A stretch of DNA of 64,000 bases, from the NCBI GenBank assembly GCA_965262725.1, contig OZ253555.1, positions 1,477,256 through 1,541,255 of the forward strand, in the 5' to 3' direction. Numbering within the stretch: position 1 is the stretch's first letter; every line of letters starts with the position of its first letter. The DNA comes from Dehalococcoidia bacterium (GTDB lineage Bacteria > Chloroflexota > Dehalococcoidia > UBA2979). Position numbers and translations under genes: made by a program. Shown in pieces: positions 4,144-61,849 of the stretch. The notes beneath the pieces were generated by a model, which saw only the letters and a program-made list of their open reading frames with translations, was not told where the DNA came from and searched no databases.

Positions 4144-7281
<3,138 letters not shown>

Positions 7282-7356
7282 TCCCGCCGCCTGACGCTCG
7301 CGACCAGGGTCTGCGCGCGATCAAGCACACTCAGGATCCGCATCACGGTCTCAGAC

Positions 7357-43550: not shown

Positions 43551-44405
43551 GTGTCCGTGACTGAGCGAGCCACGTTCGGTGACTTCATCCTCGGGTTCGA
43601 GGGTCTCGGGATCTTGCGCTCCTGGATGCTGGACCCGGCTGCTGTCAGGGCGAGAAGGAACAACATCGTTCGGATCGTCACGCAATTCGAGGAGGCGCCC
43701 TGGTCAGACCCCGTCGTCGCGGAGGAGCGGACAGTCACCGCCGGATACGCCGAATGGGTCGCTACATACGACAGGGGTGACAACGCGGTGATACTCGCGG
43801 AGGAGCCCGTGGTACGTGGACTCCTCGCCCGCTACCCGGTTGGTGTCGCACTGGACGCAGCCTGCGGCACGGGGAGGCATGCTGCGTACTTGGCCTCGCT
43901 GGGCCATCAGGTGACCGGCATCGACTCGACGCCTGCCATGCTTGACGTCGCACGGGCGACGGTGCCCACCGCACGCTTTGCGACGGCGGACCTGGCGGCG
44001 CTTCCTCTACCTGACGAGGCGATGGACCTGGCCGTCTGTACGCTCGCACTGAGCCACTGCGCCGATCTGGGACCACCAATTCGGGAGTTGGCCCGGGTCA
44101 TGCGTCCTGGAGGGTCAGTGATCGTCTCTGACGTCCATCCGTTCATGGTGATGCTCGGTGATCACGGCGTGTATCCGCTGAGCGACTCGGCGAGCGCGTT
44201 CGTTCGGAGCTACGTCCATCTGCCGTCGGCCTATCTCAGGGCCTTCCGCGAGGCGGGACTCCGGGTCGTTCAGTGTATTGAGCCTCTCCACGGAGATAGG
44301 GAGATCGCCACGATCGGATTCGCGGAGCGGATGCCCGACCTGGCGGAGGCTGCTGTCCGGGGTCTTCCGATCGTGATCGTGTGGGAACTCGAGAGGGTCG
44401 CCTGA
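43551..44405 (+). CDS. Class I SAM-dependent methyltransferase, 284 aa.
   Basis: Motif I VALDAACGTGRHAAYLA. Motif II/post-I DLAVCTLALSH. RPGGSVIVSD. Confidence 0.85.
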   Translation: MSVTERATFGDFILGFEGLGILRSWMLDPAAVRARRNNIVRIVTQFEEAPWSDPVVAEERTVTAGYAEWVATYDRGDNAVILAEEPVVRGLLARYPVGVALDAACGTGRHAAYLASLGHQVTGIDSTPAMLDVARATVPTARFATADLAALPLPDEAMDLAVCTLALSHCADLGPPIRELARVMRPGGSVIVSDVHPFMVMLGDHGVYPLSDSASAFVRSYVHLPSAYLRAFREAGLRVVQCIEPLHGDREIATIGFAERMPDLAEAAVRGLPIVIVWELERVA

Positions 44406-45020
44406 CGGGGGGAGTTTGTCGGATGCCGCCGAGGGAGGAACGCACACCCAGTGTCCTAGCCGGCGCTGCATATTCGACGCTCGGTAACGACGAAGACGGA
44501 GTCGCGGTTGTTCTTGAGCAACTGGTGCAGGAGGTCGGGTAGTGCATAGGGGACGGGCGTCGGAGGTCACCAGTTCCACGTAACGCTGCGGTCAATCGCT
44601 GAGTACGCTGGGAGCTTGCCGAGAAGTCGGGGGCGGGTCACTTGTCTAAGCTCGAATCCAGAGCGCCAGGCTAACTGGCGAGTAGGCAGGAGGTGGAAGT
44701 CCTCTATGGCAAAGAGCTAGCCACTCATGTCATTCCGCGAGCCGTGCGCGGGTCGTCGCGAGGCGGCTTGTGAAGCGTCGGCAGCGGGGTGTGCGGGCGG
44801 GGCTAATGAGCATCGAAAGGGCCATTTGGGGTGCCGAGGCTCTTGGATTGGTCGAAGGCAATACCGGCGACGGCGCTACTGGCGAGTCGTGGTCGGGCCC
44901 CACGGTGTCGAAGACCCCATGCACGCACACACGTCTATCGCCGGGACTTGGGAGAGCTGCGCGTTGTCCCGACGAGTCGTACGCCGGGACCGCGTCGGGA
45001 AGGGACGTAAACCGTAGCCG

Positions 45021-45517
45021 ATGATGAACGATGCGCAGCAGTCTGATGGGGCCGTACGAGCGATGAAGGCGGCGAACAAGGGGGCGCGAGCCCCGGCGGA
45101 GTCGCTGGAGCAAAGGGCCCCAACCGAGAGGAATCCTCAAAGCACCGGCACGGTCCGGACGCAGAGTCGGGGTGCGGTGTCACCCGGAGCGGAGAGGATA
45201 CGGCAGTTCGTGGAACGGAAGCCGGGAGAGAAACTCACCGCGCTCTTGCACCACATCACGCCGGAGGCGCTGCGGGAGGCGTATCTCGCGTTGAAGCGGG
45301 ATGCGGCTCCGGGCGTGGACGGGGTGAGGTGGCGAGAATACGGGGACGGGCTGGACGAGCGATTGCTCGACCTGCATGGCCGCGTACACCGTGGAGCGTA
45401 CCGGGCGAAGCCCGTCAGGCGGGTAGAGATACCCAAGCCGGACGGGGGAATACGGCCGCTCGGTATCGTCTCGCTGGAGGACAAGATCGTTCAGCGGGCG
45501 GTGGTGGACAATCTTTT
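45021..45517 (+). pseudogene. Group II intron reverse transcriptase, N-terminal part (RT domains 0, 1, 2a), cut by an insertion.
   Basis: LTALLHHITPEALREAYLALKRDAAPGVDGV (RT0). YRAKPVRRVEIPKPDGGIRPLGIVSLEDKIVQRAV (RT1/2). The last 17 codons of the track ORF (GTSKNDYIVGMVNDIL) belong to the inserted DNA. Confidence 0.8.
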
Positions 45518-46800
45518 GGGCACTTCGAAGAATGACTATATCGTCGGCATGGTGAATGATATACTGTAGCCATCAGTGTCATGGTTACGGGGGATGATAT
45601 GGGCCAACTTGGGTTCTTCAATGTGGACGACCGCTACGACGCTCTCGACGCCAAGGGCGACCCACTCGCCAAGCTCGACCAAATCATCCCGTGGGAGCAG
45701 TTCAGACCTCAGTTAGAAGCCGTCTGGGCCACGCCCGAAGAAGAGCGTAAATCACCGGCCGGACGCAAGCCATGGGACGCAATCGTCATCTTCAAGGGAT
45801 TGATACTCGGCGTACTCTACAACCTCTCCGATGAACAGATTGAGTATCAGATCCGCGACCGTCTCTCCTTCTCCCGCTTCTGCGGCACAGGCATCGAAGG
45901 CCGGGTGCCCGACGCCACCACCTTCTGGCTCTACCGCGAGCAGTTGACCAGGGCGGGCGCCATCGCCGAGTTGTTCCAGGCCTTCGACCACTATCTCGCC
46001 AGCCAGGGCTACCGCGCCAGTGGCGGACAGATCGTCGACGCCTCGATCGTCTCGGTGCCGATCCAGCGCAACAGCCGCCGGGAGAACGAGTCGCTCAAGC
46101 AGGACCTCATTCCCTCGGAGTGGGTCTTCAATCCGGCGAAGCTGGCCCAGAAAGACCTCGACGCCCGCTGGACGAAGAAGCACGGGAAGAGTCACTACGG
46201 CTACAAGAACCACATCACCATCGATCGGCGCCACAAGCTGGTGCGTTCCTACGCCGTCACCGATGCCGCGGTCCATGACAGCCAGGTGATCGACCAGCTG
46301 CTCGACTCTCCGAACACGTCACCCGATGTGTGGGCAGACCGTGCCTATCGGTCGCGGGCGATTGAGGCAATGCTCACGGAGAAAGGTCTGACGAGCCGCA
46401 TCCATCGGAAGGCCGCTGCCAACCGGCCGTTGACGGCGGCTGAGGAGGCGGTCAACCGGGGATGGTCGCAAGTACGGGCCCGGGTTGAGCACATCTTCGG
46501 CTCGCAGACGAACGAGATGGGCGGCACGCACATCCGTACGATCGGCGTGCGGCGGGCAGTGACGCAGATCGGCTTCAAGAACCTGGCGTACAATATTCGC
46601 CGTCTGGCGCACCTCGAACACCGCCGTACGGCTGCCGCGGCCTAGCTTGCCGCCACCCGTCCACAGACCTCACACCAGCCTCTAGTTCGGTGCTTTGACA
46701 GTCCCGTTTAACTGTCAATTATCCCGCTTCACCTATGCTCTCGCGGACTCACCCACACCCCCTGGGGTCTCCTCAGCTACGCCCTCTGCCCCCTCGTGCC
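45518..46800 (+). mobile_element. IS5-family insertion sequence inside the intron RT gene. The left end is about 45518; the right end is uncertain (~46750-46850).
   Basis: A transposase ORF starts ~80 nt after the RT disruption point, matching the IS5 layout. A 24-bp palindrome ttgacagtcccgtttaactgtcaa sits at 46694-46717. Confidence 0.6.
45581..46645 (+). CDS. IS5-family DDE transposase, 354 aa (probable true start at the MGQLGFF Met, 45599).
   Basis: KGLILGVLYNLSDEQIEYQIRDRLSFSRF. DASIVSVPIQRNSRRENE. DARWTKKHGKSHYGYKNHITIDRRHKLVRSYAVTDAAVHDSQV. These follow the IS5 InsH pattern. Confidence 0.9.
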   Translation: MVTGDDMGQLGFFNVDDRYDALDAKGDPLAKLDQIIPWEQFRPQLEAVWATPEEERKSPAGRKPWDAIVIFKGLILGVLYNLSDEQIEYQIRDRLSFSRFCGTGIEGRVPDATTFWLYREQLTRAGAIAELFQAFDHYLASQGYRASGGQIVDASIVSVPIQRNSRRENESLKQDLIPSEWVFNPAKLAQKDLDARWTKKHGKSHYGYKNHITIDRRHKLVRSYAVTDAAVHDSQVIDQLLDSPNTSPDVWADRAYRSRAIEAMLTEKGLTSRIHRKAAANRPLTAAEEAVNRGWSQVRARVEHIFGSQTNEMGGTHIRTIGVRRAVTQIGFKNLAYNIRRLAHLEHRRTAAAA

Positions 46801-47730
46801 CTCACCGATACCTTCATCAACAATCGCGAGTTCTTCGAGGTGCCCTTTTGAACCCGATTTACGAGTCGGGCTACGTGCGTCCGGAAGTCGAAGGGGTGGT
46901 GACGTGATGACGTGACCGGTCCGGAGACATGCTCGTTGCTGCCAGCCGGTGAGAGTCCGGCACGGGTAACTGTCAGGAGGCCCGTTAGCAGGTCGGCGGC
47001 GTGGACGGGAAACGGTCTGCGTCGAAGCCCGACGTCAAGAGCCCTATGAGGGGGAGCAAACGTGCGGTCCGCAGCATGACGCGAAGTCTGCCGCGCCGTG
47101 AGACTCGCCTGTCTATTGACAGGACCAAGGAGGAGCCGAGCCCGGGTGGTCAGGGCGAAGGCCATGGACGAGGTGAAGATCCTGGAATGCAGCCTCAAGA
47201 AACCTCCCGGCGTATGGGACGTGGAACGTACGGAAGGTAGCGACGGGAACCGGAGAAGCCCTCCCCGGCCCGGCACCCTGTGAGAGGGCGTCGGAGCGAG
47301 GCGTCCTATAACCGGTCAGAGCCGGGAAGTGGACAGCCAGCCGGAAGGGTGGCGGAGGGGGTCGTAGTACCGCTGGAGCCGGACGGACAACATAACCGCC
47401 GGTGATGGGAAGGACCCCTACTTTGTCCGTGCATGTTGCTGGGGGTGTGGACTGGTGAGTGCCCCTCGGGGCTAGCAACCACTTGGTAGGGTTCGAGGCT
47501 CTCCGCACATGCTGTACCGGCTGGCCAAGGCACGACCCACGTTGTGGGGAGCGCTGCATGCCATCTGGTGAAGGGCATCGGTGAGCCGGATGAGGGAGAA
47601 CCTCACGTCCGGTTCGATGTGGCAGGGGCTGGAGACGGACGCTGCTATGGCCGTGGAGTTGGGCACCACCGGGAAACCGGCTTGGAACTGATGCGCCACC
47701 GCCTACGGCTCGCACCGCGCCAGCCCCTGA

Positions 47731-48699
47731 CCCTACTACGGCTTCTCGCATGGCTTCAGGCCGGGGCGTTCGGCGCATGACGCGCTGGACGCACTGGCCT
47801 ACGCGGTCGAACGGCGCAAGGTCAGCTGGATTGTCGAGGTGGACATCCGGGAGTTCTTCGGCAGCATCGACCGGGGGCGGCTGATGTCGTTTCTGGAGAT
47901 GCGCATCGGGGACCAGCGGGTGTTGCGCCTGATACGAAAGTGGCTGAGCGTCGGCGTCATGGACGCGGAGCCGGAAGTCGATTTCGTGCGGGGGATGCCG
48001 CAGGGGGCGCCGATATCGCCGCTGCTTGCGAACGTGTACCTGCACAACGTGCTCGACGACTGGTTTGCGCGCGAGTGGCGACCGCGGGAGGTCCGGGGCG
48101 AGGCGTACATCGTGCGGTATGCCGATGACTTCGTCCTGGGGTTCCAGCACCGCAGCGATGCGGTGCGGTTCATGGAGGCACTCCGGGAGCGGTTCGCGGC
48201 CTACGGGCTGGAGCTGCACCCGGAGAAGACCCGTCTACTTGAGTTCGGCAGGTTCGCGCTGGCGAACAGGCGGAAGCGCGGGGAGGGCCGACCGGAAACG
48301 TTCGACTTTCTCGGCATGACGCACTACTGCCGGACCCGACGCGACGGGAGATTCGGGCTGGGGCGCAAGCCCGTTGCGAAGCGGATGCGCCGGACGCTGA
48401 AGGCCATCAAGGCCGAGTTGTGGCGGCGCATGCACGACAACCCCGTGACGACGGGGCAGTGGCTGGGGCGGGTACTGCGTGGGTGGCTTGGCTACTACGC
48501 GGTGCCGACCAGCTCGCCGGCGCTCACGCGGTTTGTCCGTTTCGTGAAGCGGCTCTGGCTGCGCGTTCTCCGACGGCGGTCGCAGCGCGACCGTTTCACG
48601 TGGGAGCGCATCCTTGCCCTGTGCCAGGGACACTGGCCCCGAATCTCCATCCTTCACCCGTGGCCTGCGGAGCGATTTGCCGTCACGCACTTGAGGTAG
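47731..48699 (+). pseudogene. Group II intron reverse transcriptase/maturase, C-terminal part (RT domains 2b-7 and X domain).
   Basis: The in-frame reading from 47731 gives PYYGFSHGFRPGRSAHDALDALAYAVERRKVSWIVEVDIREFFGSIDRGRLM..., then PQGAPISPLLANVYLH and YIVRYADDFVLGF (YADD). The maturase region is WLRGWLGYYA. The track ORF lists it from the GTG at 47839. Confidence 0.85.
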
Positions 48700-48772
48700 G
48701 AGCCGGATGCCCGAGAGGGCACGTCCGGATCTGTGCGGGGGGTGCCGGGCAACCGGCATCCCTACCGCGAAC
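48700..48772 (+). ncRNA. Group II intron domain V (48700-48731) and domain VI with bulged branch-point A (~48764).
   Basis: DV: gagccggatgccc-gaga-gggc-AC-gtccggatc (AGC triad, GNRA-like loop, 2-nt AC bulge). DVI: ggggtgccgg-gcaa-ccggcatccc with an unpaired A at 48764, 8 nt before the putative 3' splice site. Confidence 0.65.
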
Positions 48773-48983
48773 CGAACGAAGCTTGACGAGGCGGGGTGCC
48801 GGGCTGCCGGAGAGTTCGACGGGTGTGTCGGCGTTCGCCGGGCGGCGCCGGGGGCGGGCCGGAGCCAAGAGTCGTCGCTCAGCGCCGCTCGGGGGCGCTG
48901 AGGGTGCGGGCGCGAGGGTGCGCGAGGCGTGCGCGGGCATGCTGGCGCGAGCTTCGGCTCCGGGTCGGCGCTGTGAGCGGGCG

Positions 48984-49427
48984 TCAGGCCGGAAGCGGTA
49001 TCGCCCGTAGTCGCGCGAGCGCGGCTGCCAGCTGCCCGGCCCAGGGCCAGCGCTTCGGGAGGTGCAGGGTCCACCGCCGGGCAGAGTGGGTGAGCCGTCC
49101 GGCGAGAGAGAAGTAGCGTCGCCTGAGCGTCCTGGTCGTCACGATCCCCTCGCCGAGCCCGAGGCGTGCCATCCAGCGGGCGAGGTTGTGCGCGATCACC
49201 TGCACCGCGAGCCACGCCGCGTTCGCGGCGAAGCGGCCCGAGGGGAGATGGTTCAACCCGACGCCGTACTTGAGGTCGCGGATCGCGTTCTCGATCTCGG
49301 CGTGACGGCGATGGTCGTGTTCCGATTGTCGTTGAGCAGCGATTCCGTCAGTAGTTAACGGAGCAGCGAATCTGTCAGTCCCCAGCCAGCGAGCAGGGGG
49401 TGACAGTGCAACAGTTCGAAGAGGCAC
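48984..49427 (-). pseudogene. C-terminal fragment of an IS1380/IS4-superfamily-like DDE transposase.
   Basis: HAEIENAIRDLKYGVGLNHLPSGRFAANAAWLAVQVIAHNLARW is the conserved C-terminal block of IS1380-like transposases. The N-terminus is missing (overlapped by the next element). Confidence 0.55.
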
Positions 49428-50932
49428 GACGCTACGTACTCGACCGGGTGATCGCCGGAGATCTGCAGGTCTCGCAGGCCGCCGAGATCCTGAGCATCAG
49501 CGAGCGGCACGGGTGGCGGCTCCTCGCCGCCTACCGTGCGCGGGGAGCCGCGGCGCTCGCCCACGGCAACCGCCGGCGCCGGCCGCACAACGCCGTCCCG
49601 GCCGATGTCGCCTCGGCCGTGGTGCGCCTGGCCACCACCCGCTACCCGGGAGCGAACCACACCCACCTCGCCGAGCTGCTGTGGGAGCACGAGGGCCTGG
49701 ACGTGAGCAGTTGGACCGTCCGCCGGATCCTGGCGCGGGCCAGCATCCCGAGTCCCCGCCGCCGCCGGCCGCCCGAGCACCGCGTCCGGCGTGAGCGGAT
49801 GCCCCGCGAGGGGATGCTGCTCCAGGTCGATGGCAGCCATCACGCCTGGCTCGAGGGACGAGGCCCGCGCTTCGCCCTGCTGCTCGCCGTCGACGATGCG
49901 ACCGGCGCAGCCGTGCACGCGCTCTTCCGCCCCACCGAGGACGCGCGCGGCTACTTCCTCCTGCTGGAGGAGGTCGTCCGCGGCTGCGGCATCCCGCTCG
50001 CCCTCTACAGTGACCGCCACGGCGTCTTCAAGGCCTCCCCCGACGGACGGCGCGGACTGAAGGTGTCCACCCAGTTCGCACGGGCGATGCGTGAACTGGG
50101 GATCACCCAGATCTTCGCGCGATCACCGCAGGCGAAGGGGCGCGTGGAACGTGCCGCAGGTACGTTCCAGGACCGGCTGGTGACCGAACTGCGCCACGCT
50201 TCCGCCTCCACCATCCCCGAGGCACACGCCGTACTCGAGCGCTTCCTGCCGCGCTTCAACGCCCGCTTCCGGATCCCGGCAGCGCAGCCCGTGGTGGCCT
50301 ACCGCCCGCTCGATCCCGCGCTCCCCCTCGCGTCCATCCTGAGCTTCCGGCACCCCCGCACCGTCGCGCGCGACAACACCGTCAAGTACCACTGGCGCAC
50401 GCTGCAGCTGCTGCCCGGGCCCGAGCGGAGAAGCTACGCCGGGACGCAGGTCGAGGTGGTGGAGCGGCCGGCCGGCGAGCTCTCCGTCCAGCACCAGGGG
50501 GAGACGATCCCCTCACGCCCGGCACCGCCGCGCGCGGGCGTGCTGAGAGCGGTTCGCTCCGAGCTGACCCAGAACCCCGACCACGAGCGCATCGCCTCAG
50601 GGCTCGGCTCCGGCGGCGCGCTCCGGCGGCTGCCTGCACTCCTGGCTGCTGCGGCGGTGGATGCGACGCGCAACGGCGCTGCGGTCAGGTCGGAGACCAG
50701 CGGCAAGCAGCTCCGGGCTCCGACTCCTCGGCAGCTCGCCCGCTGGAAGGCGATCCAGCAGGCGCAGCTGCAGGGACTGTCCATGCGGGCGACCGCCAGG
50801 CTGCTCGGGATCTCCCGCGACACCGTCAGCAGCTACGTCCGCGCCAACGGCGTCCCTGGACGCCGGAACGGTGCCGCGGCATCCTCCGACGACCAGGGCG
50901 GTACTGACGGAGTCGCTGCTCCGTTGCACTGA
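49400..50932 (+). CDS. DDE (rve-superfamily) transposase, IS481-like family, 510 aa.
   Basis: N-terminal HTH (LQVSQAAEILSISERHGWRLL). Integrase core LLQVDGSHHAW...LLAVDDATGAAVHALF...ALYSDRHGVFK...QAKGRVERAAGTFQDRL. Confidence 0.75.
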   Translation: MTVQQFEEARRYVLDRVIAGDLQVSQAAEILSISERHGWRLLAAYRARGAAALAHGNRRRRPHNAVPADVASAVVRLATTRYPGANHTHLAELLWEHEGLDVSSWTVRRILARASIPSPRRRRPPEHRVRRERMPREGMLLQVDGSHHAWLEGRGPRFALLLAVDDATGAAVHALFRPTEDARGYFLLLEEVVRGCGIPLALYSDRHGVFKASPDGRRGLKVSTQFARAMRELGITQIFARSPQAKGRVERAAGTFQDRLVTELRHASASTIPEAHAVLERFLPRFNARFRIPAAQPVVAYRPLDPALPLASILSFRHPRTVARDNTVKYHWRTLQLLPGPERRSYAGTQVEVVERPAGELSVQHQGETIPSRPAPPRAGVLRAVRSELTQNPDHERIASGLGSGGALRRLPALLAAAAVDATRNGAAVRSETSGKQLRAPTPRQLARWKAIQQAQLQGLSMRATARLLGISRDTVSSYVRANGVPGRRNGAAASSDDQGGTDGVAAPLH

Positions 50933-54440: not shown

Positions 54441-54516
54441 TGGTAGCAGGGGCAGGATTCGAACCTGCGACCAAGGGCTTATGAATCCCCTGCTCTACCA
54501 CTGAGCTACCCTGCCG
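54441..54516 (-). tRNA. tRNA-Met (anticodon CAT), 76 nt with encoded CCA.
   Basis: The reverse complement reads ggcagggtagctcagtggtagagcaggggattcataagcccttggtcgcaggttcgaatcctgcccctgctacca. It has a D-arm gctc/gagc, a TTCATAA anticodon loop and T-arm gcagg-ttcgaat-cctgc. There is an A-G mismatch at 31:39 of the anticodon stem. Confidence 0.9.
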
Positions 54517-61772: not shown

Positions 61773-61849
61773 GGGCGATTAGCTCAGCTGGCGAGAGCAT
61801 CCGGTTTACACCCGGAAGGTCGGAGGTTCGAGTCCTTCATCGCCCACCA
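61773..61849 (+). tRNA. tRNA-Val (anticodon TAC), 77 nt with encoded CCA.
   Basis: gggcgattagctcagctggcgagagcatccggtttacacccggaaggtcggaggttcgagtccttcatcgcccacca. Anticodon loop ttTACac. T-loop ttcgagt. Confidence 0.9.

Follow-up and report, generated by a model that had tools for sequence, protein, structure and literature searches.

The window analysed here is a stretch of 64,000 nucleotides of contig OZ253555.1 from a Dehalococcoidia bacterium (phylum Chloroflexota), and the element under study is a group II intron whose gene for a reverse transcriptase (RT)/maturase is broken into pieces. In the list of open reading frames (ORFs), the N-terminal RT ORF starts at 45021, the C-terminal part ends at the stop codon 48697-48699, and a 354-amino-acid (aa) ORF at 45581-46645 sits between the two. 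A sequence-only reading of this DNA had taken the intervening material for one seamless insertion of 2.2 kb. The RT ORF is indeed split, but by two separate elements with RT codons between them, namely an IS5-family insertion sequence (IS) and, 24 bp away, an 862-nt group II intron lacking an ORF. Matches to Rfam domain I-IV models in this region, taken at gathering thresholds, likewise belong to two models, RF02005 and RF02003, the latter falling inside the supposed insertion. Both introns are on the + strand and the inner one lies entirely within the outer one, so that the nesting in this bacterial window comprises one intron level plus one IS. We read 44661-48772 as a group II twintron that is additionally broken by an IS, with precise boundaries for each element, and put the probability of this reading, which is drawn from sequence comparison, at roughly 85%.

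The outer RT gene can be rebuilt from three pieces on the + strand. Codons 1-166 (ending ...AVVDNLL) occupy 45021-45518 according to the ORF list and its translation, codons 167-174 (NPIYESGY) lie between the inserts at 46851-46874 and are contiguous with their neighbours in intact copies, and codons 175-494 with the stop follow at 47737-48699, as read from the translation of the rebuilt ORF. Joined, the three pieces form an uninterrupted ORF of 494 aa without frameshift or stop, which scores 326.4 bits for TIGR04416 (cut-off 300) and 126 bits for RVT_1 and is 52-55% identical to intact ltrA genes along its whole length (residues 1-494). The RT halves had been described as abutting directly (45021-45517 and 47731-48699); at the nucleotide level, the junction 45517/47731 is out of frame. 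Likewise, the residues PY in the proposed join ...NLL/PYYGF... do not belong to the RT, being encoded by CCCTAC, the last 6 nt of the inner intron.

The loci of the closest relatives of the rebuilt RT in the protein collection (P0001, 99% identical; P0002, 95%) were then compared with the window. With both inserts removed, the restored outer intron aligns without gaps to the intact copy L028a over 1935 nt at 98.1% identity, with 34 mismatches within the 1918-nt intron, and is 94.3% identical to L029; the rebuilt RT differs from that of L028a at 6 amino acids. L028a is empty at the site of the IS as well as at that of the inner intron, and the peptide ...NLLNPIYESGYYGFSHGFRP... is unbroken in L028 and L029. 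Uninterrupted copies of the intron thus exist, L028a and L029 both being without inserts, and the earlier proposal that the insertion struck an otherwise complete intron holds. The collinearity of the restored intron with intact copies rules out a union of two unrelated half-introns. More generally, mobile elements crowd the surroundings, among them adjoining transposase genes of the IS1380 and ISNCY types, and the related assemblies are metagenome-derived; both circumstances would favour the idea that each RT half stems from a different intron, that recombination or mis-assembly joined them, and that one intact intron never existed here. The gapless match to L028a across all 1918 nt, the similarity to L029, the near-identity of the RT proteins and the fact that each junction is an exact element boundary speak against this explanation, which we regard as extremely improbable.

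Among named genomes, relatives of the outer RT occur in Dehalococcoidia (Chloroflexota) assemblies and, at 50% identity, in one Planctomycetota, and the outer-type family is present in many copies per Dehalococcoidia genome. No second insertion of an intron into an RT ORF of the kind seen in the window was found among 28 related loci examined. A 286-aa cluster member (P0132, at L030), considered as a further split RT, turned out to be a frameshifted copy and not a twintron. The mismatches between the window and L028a are unevenly distributed, 20 of the 34 falling within the first ~290 nt (44661-44950), while the RT gene is ~1% divergent; this clustering in the 5' part of the ribozyme suggests mosaicism or gene conversion among copies.

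The first insert is an IS5-family IS of 1326 bp at 45519-46844 (+ strand), placed between codons 166 and 167 by its inverted repeats, target duplication and other copies. Its transposase ORF (45581-46645) scores 271 bits for NF033581 (vs 140) and matches the Pfam families DDE_Tnp_1 and DUF772. The terminal inverted repeats GGCACTTCGAAGAA and GGCACCTCGAAGAA are 14 nt long with one mismatch, and the target CTTTTG is duplicated at 45513-45518 and 46845-46850; the true duplication measures 4-6 bp depending on where the ends are drawn, and every version restores the same sequence. An identical transposase is present on at least 17 contigs, and the seven IS copies examined have the same ends and are identical at 1323-1325 of 1326 nt (99.8-99.9%), which points to a very recent insertion. 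Most of the other copies (L001-L007, around 5939 and 7264) occupy CTAG sites, which are frequently part of a palindromic repeat, GGACACTAG...CTAGTGTCC; the site in the window, CTTTTG, is atypical and just 24 bp from the inner intron.

The 2.2 kb between the RT pieces are contiguous and the IS and the 862-nt element stand only 24 bp apart, which might be taken to mean that a single foreign block, for example a composite transposon with intron fragments, entered the gene. The spacer, however, consists of true RT codons (167-174) that are unbroken in intact copies, and the target duplication brackets the IS alone. Moreover, none of the seven other IS copies, whose termini are identical to those in the window, has an intron attached, and the 862-nt element has ends of its own, confirmed by relatives, and exon-binding sites (EBS) that fit the 13 nt upstream of it. 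We therefore give the single-block explanation next to no weight.

Turning to the outer intron itself, the element spans 44661-48772 (+ strand), 4112 bp as found and 1918 nt minus both inserts. Its start had been put at 44410, with no 5' end pinned down and GTGCG at 44744 and 44792 named as candidates; the intron begins instead at 44661, where its 5' terminus reads GAGCG (44661-44665), and the two candidates are internal to domain I. The core of domains I-IV (44696-44917) matches RF02005 (group-II-D1D4-6) over the full model length at 170 bits (E=2e-49, vs a gathering score of 49). Alignment with complete relatives from Ralstonia, Burkholderia and Rhizobium indicates that homology begins at GTGCGCCGGGAGACCGGC, ~35 nt 5' of the GGTGCAAGTCC motif; its counterpart in the window is GAGCGCCAGGCTAACTGGC at 44661, GAGCG aligning with the GTGCG of these proteobacterial relatives. 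The same GAGCG start is found in L028a, L029 and the 83%-identical L028b, all with different flanks.

The 5' junction is further defined by pairing between EBS1 and its intron-binding site (IBS1). EBS1 is the hairpin loop TGGATT (44844-44849), which pairs with IBS1 (AATCCA, 44655-44660), the six nucleotides that close the 5' exon. The assignment derives from co-variation with cognate 5' exons in eight relatives, anchored at exon position -1: the loop CTCCAG accompanies the exon CTGGGG in L024, CTCGCA accompanies TGCGGG in L031 and L051, and the corresponding pairs are TACTG and CAGTA in Ralstonia, TCAGAAC and GTTCTGA in Burkholderia, and CAACTG and CAGTTG in Rhizobium. Since the loop co-varies with the exon of each copy, the 5' junction lies at 44660/44661.

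The 5' consensus of group II introns is GUGYG, from which the outer intron departs; its more distant relatives have GTGCG. Of 25 outer-type copies examined in Dehalococcoidia assemblies, 22 have the GAGCG terminus; their flanks vary, and the clade has evidently proliferated. The three remaining copies, with GTGCG, are those inserted in domain V of inner-type introns. Because GAGCG is found throughout the clade, we take it for a clade trait and reject the possibility that it is a decay mutation; it is treated here as a probable clade variant that does not disqualify the element from group II membership. Judged from titles and abstracts, none of the papers returned by a literature search appears to deal with a GAGCG intron terminus.

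At the other end, domain V (48700-48731) and domain VI follow directly on the RT stop and extend to 48772 on the + strand, as the sequence-only reading had proposed, and the bulged A of domain VI, expected at about 48764, is placed at exactly that position. A permissive scan of 44000-49500 with the Intron_gpII model (RF00029; gathering score 40) gives a match at 48698-48772 that, with 39.9 bits (E=2e-5), misses this score by 0.1 bit; the relative L011 reaches 40.1 bits. Relatives are conserved with this region through ...CCCTACCGCGA(A/T). The outer 3' end, ...CCCTACCGCGAAC, is the point where homology to relatives ends and, as L024 and L028a end in AC, it is fixed at 48772 to within one base. 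The outer domains I-III, V and VI are untouched, both inserts lying in the ORF loop of domain IV. The outer intron resembles class C (IIC) introns in its compact ribozyme (~430 nt outside the ORF) and in an RT without a detected endonuclease domain, but differs from them in a 6-bp IBS1 pairing, IBS1 recognition being short in class C. Class C introns also insert immediately after a terminator-like hairpin; no significant one was detected upstream of 44661 (z=+0.8), whereas the Ralstonia relative has one (z=-2.4).

The second insert is the ORF-less inner intron, which reads GTGCG...CCCTAC, in keeping with the group II termini GUGYG...AY, and occupies 862 nt (46875-47736, + strand) between codons 174 and 175. 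Its domains I-IV are matched at 46943-47079 by RF02003 (group-II-D1D4-4) at 102.8 bits, against a gathering score of 49. Domain IV is reduced to a stub (47454-47582) that keeps the start region of the former ORF and lacks ~1.2 kb of RT ORF. By the Rfam alignment, domain V probably lies at 47583-47615 and is followed by a long domain VI reaching 47736, with a putative bulged A at 47730 and the 3' end ...CTGACCCTAC. The Intron_gpII match at 47581-47736 (37.5 bits, E=8e-5) falls short of the gathering score of 40; the low value is largely due to a ~95-nt internal insert in domain VI, and the domain V/VI regions of homologous ORF-less introns from soil score 44-48 bits. With this insert, ~120 nt separate domain V from the 3' end (47616-47736); the spacing is similar in L032 (4576-4697), ~110 nt in Rhodococcus (L008, 4975-5085) and ~75 nt in the soil introns.

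Comparison with ORF-carrying relatives locates what the inner intron has lost. Introns on plasmids of Rhodococcus and Streptomyces share 76% identity with its first ~590 nt, as far as the start of their ltrA gene; further on, its nucleotides 693-765 match the end of ltrA and domain V of these introns, and nucleotides 839-862 their 3' end. In L032, a full-length inner-type intron from Dehalococcoidia with a 460-aa RT+GIIM ORF, positions 1362-2581 have no equivalent in the inner intron, and the ~130-nt stub sits exactly where full-length relatives hold their ~1.2-1.3 kb RT+GIIM ORF. A remnant of the RT, LYRLAKARP, is recognisable by its similarity to LYRAAKADP, and the longest stop-free stretch is 83 codons.

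Both boundaries of the inner intron are independently supported, for L055 shares the 5' end (GTGTGTCCAGAAGTCGAAGGGG...) and L032 the 3' end (...CCAGCCCCTGACCCTAC, followed by unrelated sequence) despite unrelated flanks. The closest relatives, all in other assemblies, are 79-82% identical over domains I-III and at most 88% in the 3' segment; the 5' part is closest to L055 (82%, 6969-7354), and the 3' segment is 87% identical to L032. The L055 copy lies inside a Mutator-family (IS256-type) transposase gene, after ...LGIDVGTSEDGAFWLSF, and is another landing of the inner-type lineage in a mobile-element gene.

The exon-binding sites of the inner intron fit the interrupted RT gene. EBS2 is GACTCG (47102-47107); all six of its bases make Watson-Crick pairs with the exon at positions -13 to -8, where IBS2, CGAGTC (46862-46867), lies within codons 167-174. 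EBS1, GTGGTC (47146-47151), pairs with positions -6 to -1 through four Watson-Crick and two G-U pairs; the corresponding IBS1, GGCTAC (46869-46874), abuts the intron start at 46875, and all four motifs are on the + strand. An unbiased search placed the EBS1 loop between GAGCCGAGCCC and CAGGGCGAAGGCC. The homologous loop is GTCGT in the soil family, where the exon is ACGAC, and GGATC in L032, where it is GATCC. Those of the EBS2 loop and its exon are GAGGC and GCCTC in Streptomyces, ACTAC and GTAGT in R. pseudokoreensis, AGCCA and TGGCT in L055, and CCCGC/GCGGG, CCAAC/GTTGG and CCGCC/GGCGG in soil copies. Mean pairing is 3.6 bp with cognate vs 1.6 bp with non-cognate exons for EBS1 and 4.0 vs 2.3 bp for EBS2. 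An IBS2, a one-base spacer and an IBS1 directly 5' of 46875 form the very layout that insertion guided by the intron RNA would be predicted to leave. Another motif, GTAGC (~47237), was rejected as EBS1 because L055 and L032 have conserved it even though their exons are different.

The soil introns just mentioned were found with a search pattern consisting of GGTGAGTGCC, 105-135 arbitrary nucleotides and domain V. This pattern gave 0 matches in the genome collection, which did not return the window either, and matched 11 metagenome contigs. The resulting ORF-less family (L017-L023, L025-L027) comprises introns of ~800 nt with canonical ends that are 90-94% identical among themselves and ~75% identical to the inner intron across the ORF-deletion junction. 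The endpoints of the deletion fall in the same alignment column on the left and no more than 5 nt apart on the right. Over domains I-III, an identity matrix places the inner intron at 78.8% to full-length L032 and 76-79% to the soil family, which would fit either one ancient loss of the ORF or recurrent deletion at a hotspot. Complete soil copies sit mostly at a shared motif, ...GCGGGAAnTACGAC^AGnGA..GACGAGGACCA..., that does not look protein-coding, and no convincing protein-coding gene spans the junction at this usual target. The family has three EBS2/IBS2 variants, at different sites, and this argues for re-targeting after the ORF was lost and for movement of ORF-less forms of the inner type.

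These comparisons bear on whether the 862-nt element might be a dead relic, that is, a full-length intron that lost its ORF in place and no longer splices, so that the RT was dead before the IS arrived. Its Intron_gpII score below the gathering threshold, the stop codons in its ORF remnants and the fact that no further copy of the exact 862-nt element was found are what such a relic would lead one to expect, and an element as close to full-length L032 as to ORF-less forms could have suffered its deletion independently. Yet the ends of the deletion agree with those seen in the soil family, which is independently mobile; the GTGCG terminus and both EBS/IBS pairings are intact, as domain V and the domain VI stem with its bulged A appear to be. 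The outer RT ORF, free of frameshifts and stops after removal of the inserts, also speaks against long-standing decay. We consider a dead relic unlikely, though clearly less so than the single foreign block or the joined halves.

Several points weigh against a twintron disrupted by an IS. The domain V/VI matches of both introns stay just short of the gathering score (39.9 bits for the outer and 37.5 for the inner intron). The GAGCG terminus of the outer intron, clade-wide as it is, is off consensus and leaves its splicing competence putative; splicing of either intron is, at this stage, a prediction from sequence. A second copy of the 862-nt inner intron was not found in the genome and metagenome collections searched, and the 64-kb window contains no full-length inner-type intron, so the RT acting on the inner intron in trans is an assumption. 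That the same cell has sibling copies is likewise presumed from related assemblies. Finally, the chance that two independent, uniformly distributed hits fall only 24 bp apart is ~2-3% (estimated as 2x24/1918).

Taking the locus as a twintron with an added IS, we propose the following history. The RNA of the inner intron would have reverse-spliced into the DNA of the RT gene, by retrotransposition or retrohoming. Since this intron encodes no protein, its RT/maturase would have come in trans, possibly from a full-length relative of the L032 type. The inner intron is in sense orientation, and its splicing from the outer transcript would therefore restore the RT message: ...GGCTAC would be rejoined to TACGGC... 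at codons 174/175, giving the predicted ligated junction ...GAGTCGGGCTAC/TACGGCTTCTCG... and the RT frame, as expected of a twintron. Insertion of the inner intron alone, we infer, need not have been lethal to the outer one. The IS, 24 bp upstream of the inner intron, would be the irreversible lesion; it is not removable at the RNA level, so RT production from this copy would be abolished. As it leaves the inner IBS1 and IBS2 intact, the inner intron could still splice. Either of the two may have been the first to insert.

The outer intron had been called immobilised. For autonomous mobility this is plausible, given the break caused by the IS; the ribozyme domains, on the other hand, are intact, and the outer copy might still splice, or even move, with a sibling RT supplied in trans. 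RTs of the P0001 type, 99% identical, occur in related genomes.

In related genomes the nesting is also found the other way round. Outer-type introns lie inside the terminal loop of domain V of inner-type introns at four loci (L031, L032, L049 and L051) of one Dehalococcoidia genome (OZ252250.1). The insertion site is GAGCCGTGTGCGGG^AGAACCGCACG, with nesting points at 2638/2639 in both L031 and L032, 3556/3557 in L051 and a 3' junction at 4458/4459 in L049; repeated homing and spread of a composite would each account for the four loci. In addition, the soil contig L024 (reverse strand, oriented 14-1927) carries a complete outer-type intron in domain I of an ORF-less inner-type intron. The RT of this guest is intact and 51% identical, and the insertion lies between GGGAACTGGGG and AGGCCCTCCCC, which are contiguous in six uninterrupted members, inside a GGGGAGG-C-CCTCCCC hairpin. 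Two intron lineages thus appear, from these sequences, to invade each other in both directions.

A broader reading, which we hold only tentatively and think rather less probable than its negation, is that in Dehalococcoidia-type genomes the two structurally distinct lineages regularly insert into each other, either one serving as host, at functionally essential places, and that the ORF-less form is a long-lived parasite. If this were so, each host intron would work only once its guest had been spliced out, and the ORF-less form would be a non-autonomous element with conserved break points and re-targeted EBS motifs instead of a short-lived product of decay.

The closest precedent is the set of TeI3/TeI4 twintrons, together with TeI4g::ISEL2f, of Thermosynechococcus elongatus. 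In that cyanobacterium five intron RT ORFs are cut by ORF-less introns and one by an IS, and the ORF-less introns, whose deletions have defined break points, are moved by an intron RT that acts in trans (PMC2882425, Mohr, Ghanem & Lambowitz 2010). The likeness lies in ORF-less introns and an IS that interrupt intron RT ORFs; the differences are several. The inner and outer introns of T. elongatus are close relatives, the outer RT mobilising the inner intron, and insertion took place between two start codons, so that RT can be produced from unspliced RNA (PMC2882425). Here the two introns match different D1-D4 models, the outer RT is ~37% identical to that of L032, and the insertion, at codon 174/175, is inside the RT domain, so that splicing would be obligatory for RT. 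Furthermore, the IS and the inner intron share one copy, the host belongs to the Chloroflexota (Dehalococcoidia) and not to the cyanobacteria, and nesting is reciprocal in related genomes.

Other nested introns are more distant parallels. According to passages of a review that covers twintrons and ORF-less bacterial introns (PMC4424553), Methanosarcina acetivorans has introns nested up to five levels deep through repeated site-specific homing into related introns, and ORF-less introns of bacteria are rare and nearly always share a genome with related introns that do contain an ORF and whose protein may serve in trans. The Methanosarcina case differs in its archaeal host and in its depth, set against one intron level and an IS here; the ORF-less pattern, in turn, has its counterpart in the full-length inner-type introns of related Dehalococcoidia assemblies. 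The nested introns of M. acetivorans are said to have been described by Dai & Zimmerly in 2003, and ORF-less bacterial group II introns are reportedly the subject of work by Simon et al. in 2008. A bacterial twintron of Trichodesmium erythraeum splices sequentially in vivo, the inner intron first and then the outer (PMC4649490, Pfreundt & Hess 2015). The same inner-then-outer logic would apply here; the Trichodesmium twintron, however, resides in a conserved host protein gene and is RNA-validated, whereas the present one appears to lie within a mobile element and is described from sequence only.

Nesting of this sort is already known in a few microbes, and the basic picture of group II intron biology is unchanged. 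What the locus adds is a case outside cyanobacteria and archaea in which an ORF-less intron occupies the RT gene of a different intron type, with the reverse nesting in related genomes. For annotation, an RT gene that looks merely damaged by a large insertion turns out to be three mobile elements nested in one another, with boundaries exact to the base, and the gene-less intron in the gap is invisible to protein-based intron finders. Should the ORF-less lineage truly be mobile and long-lived, it would bear on the idea that bacteria do not retain non-autonomous group II introns for long, as well as on models of proliferation through RT sharing in trans and the seeding of safe landing sites within other mobile DNA.

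The flanks of the outer intron are themselves of mobile origin, it appears, the intron seeming to lie inside another mobile element (flanks 44646-44660 and 48773-49427). On the 5' side, the flank common to the window, L029 and L028a is only 15 nt (CTAAnCnCnnATCCA, 44646-44660). On the 3' side, the flank is homologous to L029 (4559-4886) through the C-terminus of an IS1380-type transposase (48984-49427, minus strand), and this gene is cut off beside an ISNCY-family transposase gene at 49400-50932. Two tRNA genes are located downstream of this cluster of mobile elements, at 54444-54515 on the minus strand and at 61773-61846 on the plus strand.

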